Source: a virus
Taxonomy: Duplodnaviria; Heunggongvirae; Uroviricota; Caudoviricetes
IMG/VR virus record: IMGVR_UViG_2537562195_000005
Strand: one strand, 5' to 3'
Length of the DNA stretch: 44,529 nucleotides
In this document: one piece after another, positions 42,001-44,529 of the stretch
Numbering within the stretch: position 1 is the stretch's first letter
Layout: each line of letters begins with the position of its first letter
Made by a program: the position numbers

Positions 42001-44529
42001 TGACGCCGGACGGCAGGCTGACGGCCCGCAATGCGGATATCAGCGGACATATCAGTGCGAACTCGGGCACGCTCAATAATGTCGTGATAGCGGAGAACTG
42101 TACGATAAATGGCACGCTGAAAGCGGAGAACATTATTGGTGATCTGGTGAAATGTGCAGGGGTGGCTTTTCCGGTGGATGGTAGTTACCTTGCGAACGGT
42201 ACACGGACGCTGACGGTGTATGACGATCACAGCTTTGACCGGCAGATTATAATCCCGCCGATAATCTATGTCGGGTCAAAACAGGAATCCCGCACCAGTA
42301 ATGACATCTGGACAGAGTGCTTCCTGCATGTTGATCAGAACGGACGCCGGATTTATTCAGGCAGGTCAGTGGCAGAGCCGGGAATTTTCAGCGGGATCAT
42401 CGATATGCCAGCTGGCGTGGTCATATCACCCTGAGTTTTACCGTGAGCTCACGGCGTCAGAATAACATTGGGGCAGTTCACGAATCAGTAACCTTCAGGC
42501 GATAGTGGTGAAGAAAAACAGCGCGGGGATCAGCATCCGCTGAACATCGCGCCCCGGGATTGCCGGAAGGAGACAAAAACCGTACAGTATGCGCGGGTGC
42601 CTTTGGCTGATGGCCGGAGGGACACCTGAAGGCCGGATGTGAAAAGGCCCCGGACAAAACATTCATGTTTAACCCGAGGCCTGACCATTCATCCTAAGCA
42701 AGTGAAAGGTTAGCGCCTCTCCGTAAAAGGAGCAAGCGTTATGTCGCAAAAACCGTTAAAAACCACCGTGATTTGTATCACGGTAGTGCTCATTATCTGG
42801 ATCACCCACACTTCACTGTGCGAGTTCCGGTTCCGGATAGCGGGCGCGGAGATTGCGGCGTTCTTACAGTGTAAGCGGTAAGAAACCGTGGCGGGGGAGT
42901 GTACTTCCCCGCCGACCGGTTGCTGAGGGTGATCAGCCGGATGGCACCTTTTTAACATCAATAAATCACAAATTTTACCGCAGGCCGGGAAACCGGTCCT
43001 GCGGTTTTTTTATGGAGGAAATCCATGGCAGTCAGAATATCGGGTGTGCTGAAGGACGGGGCCGGTAAGCCGGTACCGGGATGCACGATAGAGCTGAAAG
43101 CGCGACGCACAACGGAGACGGTGATTGTCACCACGGTGGCGTATGGTCAGCCGGGGGAAACCGGCAGTTACAGTATGGATGTTGAGCCGGGGTTGTACCG
43201 GGTGACGCTGAACACGGAAGGGTACGCGCCGTCATATGTGGGTGACATTCTGGTGAAGGCGGACTCAGCACCGGGAACGCTGAATAAATTTCTGATGGAC
43301 CTGGAGGACGCACAGTATTACCCGAAAGCCCTTGCAGAGCTGGAAGCGGTGGCCGCGGAAATCCTGAAACGTGCGGAAGCGTCAGCGGCGAGTGCAGAGG
43401 AAGCGAAGAAACGGGCAGAGAATGCGCGGGGACCGAAGGGTGATAAGGGAGACACGGGGCCACAGGGTATTCCCGGGCCAAAAGGCGATACCGGCGAGCG
43501 TGGGCCAAAGGGTGAGCGTGGTGAGGCAGGCCCACAGGGGGTACAGGGGCCACGGGGTGAAACCGGACCCGTGGGACCGCAAGGAGAGGCGGGTATTCAG
43601 GGGCCTGCTGGTCCTGCGGGCCCGCGAGGTGAAACCGGAGCCAGAGGCGAAAAAGGAGAGCCGGGAGATCCCGGAGGACCTCCGGGACCAAAAGGTGACA
43701 CTGGCCCCAGAGGGGAGCCGGGGCCTCAGGGCCCGGCAGGTCCACAGGGTATACCTGGACCTCCGGGGCCAACAGGTAGCGTCGGTCCTAAGGGGGAAAA
43801 AGGCGAGCCTGGTGATCGAGGTCCACAGGGTGCTACCGGCCCCAGAGGACCACAAGGGGAAAAAGGGGATAAAGGTGACCCCGGCCCGGCAGGCCCTGCC
43901 GGTGAGCGGGGGCCGAAAGGTGATACCGGGCCGACGGGCCCCGCAGGGAAGGATGGCGCAGATTCACAGGCGAACAGAGTGCGTATCAGCGAGAAAACAG
44001 AAGTCACCTCCAGCACAGTCGTTTTCCCCTCTTTTTATGGCGGTGCGCAGGGGGAAAATGCAGCCCCTGAGGGCGCTGTGATTCTGAATATCAGGACGGC
44101 TCCGGTATCACTGACGAACGGCAATTTAGGGGCAGCCTGTGTCACCGCTGTCACTTACGGCTTCCTTCAGGTTCATGATGGCAGCCAGTGGGTTACGGTG
44201 GAACATGAATAACATGATTTTTCCAGGTGCGGAAAGCTTAAACGGGTACCCCGTCCTGAATATTCGTATGAGGAGAAGAAATGAATCTTAAAAATCTGCA
44301 ACGTTATACTCCTGAGAAGTCGGATGTTCCGGGGGCAATGTACCTGAAGGCAGAGGATGGCCGTGACTGGTATGAAAGCCAGTCGTCATTTAAGGCGGAT
44401 ACGCTGAAGCTGGTTTATGACAGCGAAGGCATAATCACGAGTATCAGTAAGGATGTGTCGATGCTGTGGCCAGTGGGACAGAGTGTGGTGGAGGTTGAGG
44501 ATACAGAAGAAAACCGCAAAGCTGATATC

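Follow-up and report, generated by a model that had tools for sequence, protein, structure and literature searches.

A probable hok/sok-type toxin-antitoxin cassette without a mok frame, flanked by J and the tail-fibre gene, in an Stx2-converting lambdoid prophage

The DNA analysed here (the window) is the whole 44,529-nucleotide stretch of IMG/VR record IMGVR_UViG_2537562195_000005. In the late region of this Stx2-converting lambdoid prophage, J and the tail-fibre gene flank a cassette of approximately 450 bp at 42560-43011, which is probably a complete type I toxin-antitoxin system of the hok/sok type that has no mok. An earlier note on this DNA had placed a Hok-like gene at 42700-43011; the functional unit exceeds this, running from about 42560 to 43011. 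That note had found an antisense Sok RNA "not evident". This is overturned, as an Rfam sok match and colinearity with sokB and sokC place Sok at 42699->42637; the view that this Shiga-toxin prophage carries a toxin with no antidote is thereby corrected.

The toxin gene is as follows.

42741 to 42881, + strand: hok coding sequence, ATG at 42741 to TAA at 42879-42881, 46 aa plus stop (MSQKPLKTTVICITVVLIIWITHTSLCEFRFRIAGAEIAAFLQCKR)

Judging from its predicted product, this small ORF is a genuine membrane toxin gene of the Hok/Gef family, as the earlier note had proposed. The profile alignment suggested there as a check bears this out: residues 10-44 match Pfam HOK_GEF (PF01848) at 42.2 bits, above the gathering score of 22 (E = 6.1e-11), and the product matches PHROG 251 at E = 7.5e-21, so the resemblance to Hok is not due to chance. 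The 46-aa product has the family features of a length near 50 aa, a single N-terminal hydrophobic helix (VICITVVLIIWI, residues 10-21), an L-C-E motif and an acidic residue in the C-terminal part. Residues L26-C27-E28 and E37 line up with the L-C-E and E of R1 Hok and are among the conserved positions listed in the preprint of Escalera-Maurer et al., 2026 (bioRxiv 10.1101/2025.08.07.668861). Scores of the window protein against two NCBIfam models are below the cut-offs (37.9 against 89 for the HokA equivalog NF007290, and 36.8 against 73 for the Hok subfamily NF007279); by these profile scores it is not a HokA orthologue and belongs to a separate Hok subfamily. The Shine-Dalgarno (SD) sequence AAGGAG claimed in the earlier note is found at 42727-42732, spaced 8 nt from the hok ATG. 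Both SD and ATG are retained across the aligned relatives, and ORF, SD and ATG are intact in 61 unique loci of E. coli, Salmonella and E. albertii, these being the relatives whose hok ORF was recovered by a motif scan. Values of dN/dS for hok are 0.18-0.67, calculated against the 17 relatives of equal length that have synonymous differences.

The gene call itself is routine. The locus is already known as Hok, an ordinary subfamily of it, through RefSeq, PHROGs and the 2026 preprint. The identical protein, WP_000078855.1, is a "Hok/Gef family protein" in RefSeq encoded directly after gpJ in approximately 120 E. coli genomes, and is also the product annotated in one of the aligned relatives (L001). 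Hok clusters 79 and 72 are covered by the preprint (bioRxiv 10.1101/2025.08.07.668861); cluster 79 holds the same protein as the window, and its member 79_1563 differs by T24S. This variant is in the list of homologues tested for toxicity and is absent from the three reported as non-toxic, only 19_179, 60_1482 and 69_1540 being so named in the text. The toxicity evidence thus concerns a one-residue variant. Two further homologues, 72_1589 (the copy located after lom) and 72_1621 (the P2-like prophage/Salmonella type), are likewise in that list and not among the three. The survey concerns coding sequences only: its authors describe Mok as hard to call, and explicitly set aside Mok, Sok and mRNA structure (bioRxiv 10.1101/2025.08.07.668861). 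The regulatory anatomy of the window locus, set out below, is absent from it.

The transcript is delimited by three features, all RNA ends at this locus being transferred by homology.

42560 to 42588, + strand: putative hok promoter read from the sequence, with -35 TTGCCG (42560-42565), a 17-nt spacer and -10 TACAGT (42583-42588)
42595 to 43011, + strand: full-length hok mRNA, ~417 nt, GGGUGCC to the terminator U-run, with ends set by homology and the terminator
42977 to 43011, + strand: intrinsic terminator of the hok mRNA, with the tail-fibre ATG 14 nt beyond it at 43025

Position 42595 corresponds to the first position of the Rfam sok/hok-leader model and aligns with GCGGGTGC at the start of the hokB and hokC leaders; the putative hok -10 ends 6 nt before it. 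The promoter hexamers are retained as TTGCCG or TTGCCC and TAnnnT in the window clade, in the Stx-phage clade and in relatives L006 and L007. A scan of both strands for sigma-70 consensus promoters returned none, with the hok and sok hexamers below its threshold. We judge this null result to be uninformative and not negative: relatives conserve the hexamers although these match the consensus weakly, and the threshold may be too strict for them. The terminator stem has 12 pairs, split into two runs by a one-base bulge, carries a 4-nt loop and is followed by U7; at -24.3 kcal/mol (z -5.0) it deserves the description "strong" that it had been given. From the J stop (equivalent of 42543) to hok no terminator-like site was found; the only one is this, just ahead of the tail-fibre ATG.

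On the opposite strand lies the predicted antidote.

42637 to 42699, - strand: Sok antisense RNA gene, 63 nt, ends transferred by alignment from RefSeq-annotated sokC and sokB
42707 to 42735, - strand: putative sok promoter, with -35 TTGCTC (42735-42730), a 17-nt spacer and -10 TAACCT (42712-42707); start at ~42699

The predicted Sok gene runs from 42699 to 42637, cis-antisense to the hok mRNA leader, and is placed there because the leader aligns with the annotated sokB and sokC of K-12 and matches the Rfam sok family. The K-12 leaders of hokB/mokB/sokB and hokC/mokC/sokC are colinear with that of the window at every base between GCGGGTGC and the SD, the Sok hairpin and the GAGGCC...GCCTC stem included, so the Sok coordinates transfer directly; the window protein differs from HokB and HokC in belonging to another protein cluster. 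Rfam sok (RF01794) matches the leader at 42595-42752 with E = 8e-10 over the full model positions 1-157. The score of 50.9 bits is below the gathering score of 59, with several pairs of the first helix non-canonical in the match, and RF01794 is absent from a gathering-threshold Rfam scan of the window. The predicted Sok consists of a single-stranded 5' tail, a hairpin (GGCCUCGGG...CCGGGGCC) and UUUU; its fold has -27.6 kcal/mol (z -4.1), and the hairpin is conserved in 24 relatives. The -10 of the putative sok promoter, read on the plus strand as AGGTTA, is nearly invariant in the same 24, two of which have AGGATA and hence TATCCT, and the putative -35 overlaps the hok SD. The earlier note had named 42480-42740 as the place to look for a sok-like promoter and terminator and for a mok frame: the promoter boxes and a hairpin-UUUU terminator are there, and the mok frame is not.

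No leader ORF reaching the hok SD was found in the window with ATG, GTG, TTG, CTG, ATT, ATC, ATA or ACG as start. All three frames are closed upstream of hok, by TAA 42695, TGA 42703, TAG 42711 and TAA 42724. The same ORF scan recovers mokC at -57 and mokB at -58, which in K-12 open into hok, whereas the window has stops in all three frames there; the earlier observation that no mok frame is evident therefore holds. Only about 15 of the 61 unique relatives have an overlapping leader ORF, starting at six different positions, and some 46 have none; one-base indels between a conserved AGGTTAG box and the hok ATG shift the frame relation between lineages. As judged from reading frames, there is no mok at the window locus, and the same is true of most of the subfamily. 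Three candidate starts were considered and rejected. A 24-codon ORF from GTG 42639 to TAG 42713 might have been a short mok, but its start is unconserved: the GATGTG of the window is GAAAGACG or GAAAAGCG in close and distant relatives alike. GTG 42702 and ATT 42687, which align with the starts of mokC and mokB, might have been vestigial starts, but they are unconserved and the frame of each ends at TAG 42711.

The folding of the mRNA was analysed in a structure alignment of 24 representatives of 67-96% identity, from which the following elements are predicted.

42595 to 42611, + strand: 5' end-pairing element (tac equivalent), GGGUGCCUUUGGCUGAU, paired with 42933-42949 in the minimum free energy (MFE) fold and the RNAalifold consensus
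42933 to 42949, + strand: 3' end-pairing element (fbi equivalent), AUCAGCCGGAUGGCACC, with covarying pairing to the 5' end
42853 to 42861, + strand: codons of the conserved AEIAAF segment, UUGCGGCGU, paired with the hok start region AUGUCGCAA at 42741-42749
42884 to 42921, + strand: stable hairpin just after the hok stop, -25.8 kcal/mol, z -4.2, five pairs with compensatory changes
42676 to 42719, + strand: Sok-target stem-loop of the processed mRNA (GAGGC...GCCUC), loop CCUAAGCAA, -21.4 kcal/mol, z -5.4
42711 to 42741, + strand: SD-sequestering hairpin, outer stem UAGCGC/GCGUUA, CUCC 42719-42722 with GGAG 42729-42732, -12.4 kcal/mol, z -3.8

A closed fold, made by pairing of the mRNA 5' and 3' ends, is supported by compensatory changes among these 24 diverged relatives. 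In the consensus structure 98.7% of cells are paired, as against at most 51% with partners slid, and none of 500 shuffles reached the observed score. Compensatory changes occur at nine pairs, including all four of the second run of the 5'-3' helix: columns 1-7 with 367-373 of the tac/fbi pairing never change, and every pair of columns 10-13 with 360-363 covaries (CG/UA/UG, GC/CG, GC/AU and CG/GC/GU/UA). GGCACC forms a conserved island within an otherwise divergent 3' UTR. The helix between the start region and the AEIAAF codons (RNAalifold columns 155-163 with 270-278) is 100% paired, with seven of nine pairs that never vary, and is nearly invariant even at synonymous sites. When the RNA is truncated, the 5' element is predicted to pair instead with AAAGGCCCC at 42644-42652. 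The hairpin at 42884-42921 is likely to mark the 3' end of the processed mRNA, by analogy with the processing stop of plasmid R1 (PMC9841398).

The Sok-target stem-loop is a single hairpin in all 24 relatives and has a YUNR motif in its loop in 22; the window loop CCUAAGCAA includes CUAA, which fits YUNR, a motif so short that it is weak evidence by itself. The stem-loop shares bases 42711-42719 with the SD-sequestering hairpin, so that the two are mutually exclusive. The SD hairpin is present in the full-length fold and is reduced to three pairs in the truncated one. The mean energy needed to open the SD is 6.9 kcal/mol at full length, 4.7 when truncated and 7.2 when truncated with the Sok site masked, and the direction of these changes is as expected in 23 and 21 of the 24 sequences. 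The predicted change in accessibility is modest (~2.3 kcal/mol), with the SD mostly paired in every modelled state, and its equilibrium unpaired probability barely shifts between the states (0.02, 0.06 and 0.02). We treat direct control of the SD as hypothetical, because only the opening energy gives a consistent, modest switch.

These elements suggest the following mechanism. A stable mRNA of ~417 nt starting at 42595 would encode the 46-aa Hok membrane toxin. When new it would be closed, its 5' end paired with 42933-42949, the SD held in its hairpin and the AUG paired with codons from the 3' part of hok. Slow trimming from the 3' end to the hairpin at 42884-42921, as in plasmid R1, would strip off the 3' element; the freed 5' end would then pair with AAAGGCCCC at 42644-42652, allowing GAGGCC... 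to form the Sok-target stem-loop and weakening the SD hairpin. Predicted alternative folds of the full-length and truncated RNAs are what suggest this step, by which 3' processing would yield a truncated mRNA that is refolded, open to Sok and translatable. The short-lived 63-nt Sok, made from its own promoter (42699->42637), would bind the target stem-loop and lead to cleavage of the duplex by RNase III, and its binding would let the SD hairpin re-form. The switch probably acts on the ribosome-binding site of hok itself, because there is no mok leader frame, unlike in R1, hokB and hokC. In this proposal the transcript ends, the 3' processing, the involvement of RNase III, the direct SD switch and the biological role are all inferred; addiction to the prophage, shutting out other phages and assisting lysis once induced are candidate roles.

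The likeness to hok/sok (parB) of plasmid R1 extends to a small single-pass membrane toxin with an LCE motif and, for the predicted RNAs (R1: PMC9841398), to a stable folded mRNA with its 5' end paired to a 3' fbi, a hairpin following the stop codon, a YUNR loop on the target stem-loop, and a short Sok with a single-stranded 5' tail, a terminator hairpin and a promoter overlapping the hok SD. The differences are that R1 mok has 70 codons and starts ~58 nt before hok, whereas the window has no mok; that the R1 toxin is 52 aa long against 46 aa (39% identity over 33 residues); that the distance from fbi to terminator is longer in the window; and that R1 is a plasmid and the window a prophage late region.

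Near-identical prophages have the end of gpJ at the counterpart of window 42543, followed at 43025-44212 by the gene for a "prophage tail fiber N-terminal domain" protein. The hok gene is thus placed as the earlier note had it, in the slot where lambda carries lom, and no ORF of the size of lom (~200-aa outer-membrane beta-barrel, Ail/Lom family) is found between 42543 and 43025. Phages of the 933W type have lom and then a hok copy. In Sp5 and 933W the true relative of the window locus is this second, mostly unannotated copy just downstream of lom; the same subfamily follows ogr in P2-like prophages and occurs also on IncI, IncF and IncHI2 plasmids. A second, uncharacterised hok/sok module is present next to the tail genes in Stx phages of both tail types. 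A scan of genome contigs gave only five loci, of which two, labelled Planococcaceae and Vagococcus, are probably contaminant or mislabelled and were left out of the host-range evidence.

The hokW-sokW locus of Sakai prophage 5 is likewise a Hok-type type I toxin-antitoxin system in an Stx2 prophage (PMC8621323), and experiments on it set a precedent: on induction Sok is lost and Hok is made, and the locus promotes phage release (PMC8621323). We considered whether the window locus is this published one and ruled it out: HokW has 51 aa (MKQQKAM...) and its primers match cluster 35_712, which mark it as a different Hok, with 41% identity to the window protein over 34 residues. This identity, like the 39% with R1 Hok, covers the TM-LCE-AAF core. 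By analogy the window module could influence the timing of lysis, and with it the release of phage and toxin. A stronger form of this, unlikely though still deserving some weight, is that assistance to lysis from within the late operon is the main role of the locus and addiction is not: late transcription resistant to termination would, after induction, traverse the locus and collide with the sok promoter, with loss of Sok and production of Hok as the outcome. The J-to-tail-fibre transcription unit contains the locus in sense orientation, with no terminator-like site from the J stop to hok, and relatives are found where late genes or morons sit, downstream of lom and of ogr; in Sp5, mitomycin C causes RecA-dependent loss of sokW RNA and appearance of HokW, and deletion of the locus halves phage release (PMC8621323). 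However, HokW belongs to a different cluster, the IncI, IncF and IncHI2 plasmids that carry the same subfamily have no late operon, and help with lysis is in any case compatible with addiction or phage exclusion.

We regard as improbable that the cassette is a silenced remnant, a toxin ORF and RNA scaffold passively carried in the prophage and untranslatable for want of mok. R1 makes no Hok when mok carries stop codons ahead of the hok SD (PMC9841398), and for this reason a locus without mok might be untranslatable. The SD is moreover predicted to be mostly paired in all states, and the surrounding 1 kb of the window has six single-base deletions, with J frameshifted; two single-base deletions relative to the closest relatives fall inside the locus. 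Against decay stand the ORF, SD and ATG kept in 61 unique loci, the dN/dS values, and compensatory changes that preserve pairing in the 5'-3' helix, in the hairpin after the stop and in the Sok-target stem. A conserved Sok gene with its promoter boxes would be pointless if the toxin were never made, and a coding sequence one residue different is listed with the homologues tested for toxicity, outside the three named non-toxic.

More doubtful again is a canonical hok/mok/sok locus whose mok was missed, with an unusual start, or with GTG 42639 or GTG 42702 reading through the in-frame TAG 42711, and Hok translation coupled to the leader as in R1. In its favour, the 24-codon ORF from GTG 42639 to TAG 42713 is in the hok frame with GAAGG 6 nt upstream, R1 requires translation of mok up to the hok SD (PMC9841398), and Mok is considered difficult to identify by the preprint authors. 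But GTG 42639 is unconserved, no ORF with a near-cognate start reaches the SD, one-base indels change the frame, and the overlapping ORFs of the ~15 relatives in 61 have six start positions. An orphan Hok lacking an antisense antidote and controlled solely by its own promoter and terminator, for which only the lack of a minus-strand sigma-70 consensus promoter speaks, is hardly credible: the leader matches Rfam sok and is colinear with sokB and sokC, the -10 box is conserved and a terminator hairpin is present.

This widespread 46-aa subfamily (MSQK...AAFLQCK) may operate without a leader peptide and is a natural test of whether mok, taken to be essential on the R1 model, can be dispensed with. 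Searching a literature library for accounts of hok loci lacking mok gave nothing relevant, which is no proof of their being undescribed; two points, the apparently mok-independent control and a hypervariable stem for Sok recognition, may be new. The latter bears on the evolution of Sok specificity. We suggest tentatively, as a possibility somewhat short of even, that the upper target stem, which matches the Sok 5' tail, is a fast-evolving specificity cassette that limits cross-talk among the hok/sok copies of one genome, and that tac/fbi refolding and Sok binding control the hok SD directly through the two mutually exclusive hairpins; together these would amount to a mok-independent variant of the textbook hok/sok mechanism. 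The upper stem is hypervariable between relatives, and the target stem-loop holds 11 of the 14 positions at which the window and relative L012 differ.

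The 46-residue reading frame that the earlier note described between J and the side tail-fibre gene is present exactly as claimed, and the AAGGAG Shine-Dalgarno (SD) sequence and strong terminator ascribed to it were also found. The features of the locus are listed below; the two promoters are ones that we infer from sequence, and neither passed a consensus promoter scan.

Features of the hok locus in the window
42560-42588, plus strand: putative hok promoter, TTGCCG, 17-nt spacer, TACAGT
42699 to 42637, minus strand: Sok RNA gene (63 nt), coordinates transferred from RefSeq sokB and sokC
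42684-42706: hypervariable upper stem of the Sok-target hairpin (columns 93-118 of alignment A3)
42735-42730 and 42712-42707, minus strand: presumed sok promoter, TTGCTC, 17-nt spacer, TAACCT
42727-42732, plus strand: hok SD, AAGGAG, 8 nt before the hok ATG
42741 (ATG) to 42881 (TAA), plus strand: hok ORF, 46 aa, MSQKPLKTTVICITVVLIIWITHTSLCEFRFRIAGAEIAAFLQCKR
42977-43011, plus strand: intrinsic terminator of the hok mRNA, -24.3 kcal/mol, z -5.0

In the terminator, a stem of 12 pairs, split into two runs by a single bulged base, carries a 4-nt loop and is followed by U7; the tail-fibre gene begins 14 nt further on, at 43025. The gpJ gene of near-identical prophages stops at the position that matches 42543 of the window. 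The dN/dS of the hok ORF (0.18-0.67 against the 17 equal-length relatives with synonymous differences) shows purifying selection. The tail-fibre protein (43025-44212) has a conserved N-terminal domain followed by a long run of collagen-like Gly-X-Y repeats (approximately residues 135-330).

Alignment to family models bears out the Hok/Gef assignment. The protein scores 42.2 bits with Pfam HOK_GEF, whose gathering score is 22 (E 6e-11), and matches PHROG 251 ('MokW-like host killing') with E 7.5e-21. Across the helix-LCE-AAF core, BLASTP gave 39% identity to Hok of plasmid R1 and 41% to HokW. NCBIfam models for HokA and for the Hok subfamily also match, with scores that fall far under their cut-offs; the protein therefore belongs to a separate subfamily and its candidacy as a HokA orthologue is ruled out. 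The gene itself is already known and ordinary. Of 5,426 complete E. coli genomes, 209 gave a megablast match to 42480-43024, which spanned at least 80% of the query in 119 of these, and among the matches listed the ORF is labelled 'Hok/Gef family protein' beside 'gpJ'. An identical product (WP_000078855.1) is encoded by L001, a 99%-identical prophage that adjoins dusA, and the corresponding locus of phage 1720a-02 is 97% identical. The sequence 79_1563, which differs from the window protein only by T24S, is in the tested-homologue list of a 2026 preprint on Hok diversity (Escalera-Maurer et al., bioRxiv 10.1101/2025.08.07.668861), whose text names only three sequences as non-toxic, 79_1563 not being one of them. 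Only the regulatory variant, with no mok and a variable recognition stem, may be new.

Proteins of this subfamily, which follow the pattern MSQK...SLCE...GAE[IF]AAFLQCK[QRE], are present in E. coli, Salmonella, E. albertii, Serratia and Yersinia, and there are 305 confirmed matches in IMG/VR. They were seen in the following contexts.

Genomic contexts of the subfamily
After gpJ: the window type
Directly after lom: 933W, Sp5 and ∼190 other Stx phages, the ORF unannotated or named 'MokW-like'
After ogr: P2-like elements
Beside trbA: IncI plasmids

The copy just 3' of lom (2671-2811 in the 933W-type Stx phage loci L002 and L004) is 77% identical to the window hok locus, recurs in ∼190 records of Stx phages, 933W and VT2-Sakai/Sp5 among them, and lacks annotation in most of them. 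It was considered as the published hokW-sokW of Sp5 and rejected as a distinct locus of the same phage, the published toxin being another Hok of 51 aa that starts MKQQKAM... and whose cloning primers match cluster 35_712. The 38.6-kb IMG/VR contig L042 holds three complete hok loci of the subfamily in tandem (at 2008, 2502 and 3001, spaced ∼495 bp), with leaders and toxin sequences that differ between copies, and L044 holds at least two. Enterobacterial-type copies on two genome contigs (L005 and L006) labelled as a Planococcaceae MAG and Vagococcus sp. are probably due to contaminating or misassigned contigs in those assemblies.

An antisense Sok RNA, which the earlier note had considered not evident, can be recognised in the leader. 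In an E-value-threshold scan the full Rfam 'sok' model RF01794, in fact a model of the hok mRNA leader, matches 42595-42752 on the plus strand with 50.9 bits (E 8e-10), below its gathering score of 59. The leader aligns colinearly with hokC/mokC/sokC and hokB/mokB/sokB of K-12, the alignment beginning at GCGGGTGC, taking in the AAAGGCCCC...CCGAGGCC hairpin and the GAGGCC...GCCTC stem, and reaching the SD. The 63-nt RNA that it places on the minus strand is predicted to fold into a single-stranded 5' tail, a strong hairpin and UUUU (-27.6 kcal/mol, z -4.1). The sok -10 box is nearly invariant across 24 diverged relatives (TATCCT in 2), and the hok promoter is kept in the window clade, the Stx-phage clade and the relatives L006 and L007.

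The earlier note was right that no mok frame is evident. Stops at 42695 (TAA), 42703 (TGA), 42711 (TAG) and 42724 (TAA) leave none of the three frames open from the Sok target to the SD, and a scan for ORFs beginning upstream and reaching the SD found none in the window, even with CTG, ATT, ATC, ATA and ACG starts allowed, while recovering the positive controls mokC (-57) and mokB (-58). A 24-codon ORF from GTG 42639 was rejected as mok, being not conserved in relatives. No overlapping leader ORF exists in ∼46 of 61 unique relatives, and those in the remainder use six different start positions; from lineage to lineage, the frame relation is altered by single-base indels in the interval from the AGGTTAG box to the hok ATG. 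Given this absence, these indels and the purifying selection on hok, the lack of mok is a trait of the subfamily and not decay of this copy. Among the papers searched, none describes a mok-less subfamily, and Mok is explicitly outside the analysis of the preprint (bioRxiv 10.1101/2025.08.07.668861).

Among loci otherwise at least 92% identical, differences cluster where the target hairpin has its upper stem, a segment that can base-pair with the 5' tail of Sok; between the window and the related locus L012, 11 of 14 differences lie within 26 of 373 alignment columns. Compensatory changes preserve the hairpin despite this hypervariability, the segment folding as a single hairpin in all 24 representatives, with a YUNR loop in 22. 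Genomes carry one to five copies of the megablast region, and the pattern is compatible with selection that keeps the Sok specificities of copies in one genome distinct, the upper stem perhaps serving as a specificity module.

The fold of the hok mRNA is backed by covariation. RNAalifold was run without prior structure on an alignment of 24 representative mRNAs that share 67-96% identity with the window and were taken from their 5' end as far as the fbi element. It predicted four elements: a helix joining the two ends of the RNA, one in which the AUG region (42741-42749) pairs with codons for the conserved AEIAAF segment (42853-42861), a short second helix (42753-42756 with 42846-42849) and a hairpin past the stop codon. 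In the 38 pairs 98.7% of cells are paired, a share that drops to 34-51% if the 3' partners are shifted by 1-3 columns. Compensatory changes occur in nine pairs, and the covariation score of 0.235 (0.125 in shuffles) was reached by none of 500 shuffles. All four pairs that make up the second run of the 5'-3' helix covary, and GGCACC forms a conserved island within an otherwise divergent 3' UTR. The minimum free energy fold of the window mRNA closes 42595-42611 onto 42933-42949 (-163 kcal/mol, z -7.7). When the RNA is cut past the post-stop hairpin, its 5' end is predicted to pair instead with AAAGGCCCC (42644-42652) and GAGGCC...GCCUC to become a stem-loop presenting CCUAAGCAA, mirroring the tac/fbi refolding of R1 (PMC9841398). 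The last ∼12 hok codons (GAEIAAFLQCK, 42846-42881) are near-invariant in nucleotides, synonymous sites included, across relatives ∼70% identical elsewhere. These codons are predicted to pair with the start-codon region, and a constraint on RNA structure seems to overlap the 3' end of the coding sequence.

Two predicted hairpins suggest how control without mok might work. The Sok-target stem-loop (42676-42719, -21.4 kcal/mol) and an SD-sequestering hairpin (42711-42741, -12.4 kcal/mol) share bases 42711-42719 and so are mutually exclusive; the latter is complete in the full-length predicted fold and reduced to three pairs in the truncated one. The means below are those of the computed SD-opening cost over the 24 sequences, beside the value for the window.

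Cost of opening the SD (kcal/mol)
Full-length mRNA: mean 6.9, window 6.9
Truncated mRNA: mean 4.7, window 4.3
Truncated mRNA, Sok site masked: mean 7.2, window 6.6

The cost falls on truncation in 23 of 24 sequences and rises on masking in 21 of 24, but the changes are small, and at equilibrium the SD has a low probability of being unpaired in every state. We hypothesise that truncation would refold the mRNA, forming the target stem-loop and weakening the SD hairpin, and that occupation of the Sok site would make the SD harder to open again.

Within the late region the locus has the sense orientation, with its own terminator immediately before the tail-fibre gene, and a terminator scan found no terminator-like site between J and hok; late transcription after prophage induction would thus cross the locus and oppose the sok promoter. 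For hokW-sokW of Sp5, a different Hok, induction removes Sok and produces Hok, and deletion halves phage release (PMC8621323). Prophage addiction or exclusion of other phages would be equally possible roles. We take the window to be an Stx2-converting prophage, reading its 319-aa and 89-aa ORFs (16200-17440) as the Stx2 A and B subunits. Three tRNA genes precede these ORFs (15858-16106) and an STnc100 sRNA match follows them (17515-17729); isrK and C4 antisense RNA matches lie at 8674-8862. Compared with L001, the window lacks six single bases, all within ∼1 kb (41853, 41992, 42416, 42467, 42621 and 42903), and has no insertions. Either a local error of sequencing or assembly or a defective tail-tip gene would account for this. 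Four of the deletions shift the reading frame towards the 3' end of J, whose ORF stops at 41869 in place of ∼42543 and lacks ∼225 C-terminal residues. The remaining two affect the hok leader and the loop of the post-stop hairpin, and the one at 42621 is shared with the IMG/VR locus L010.
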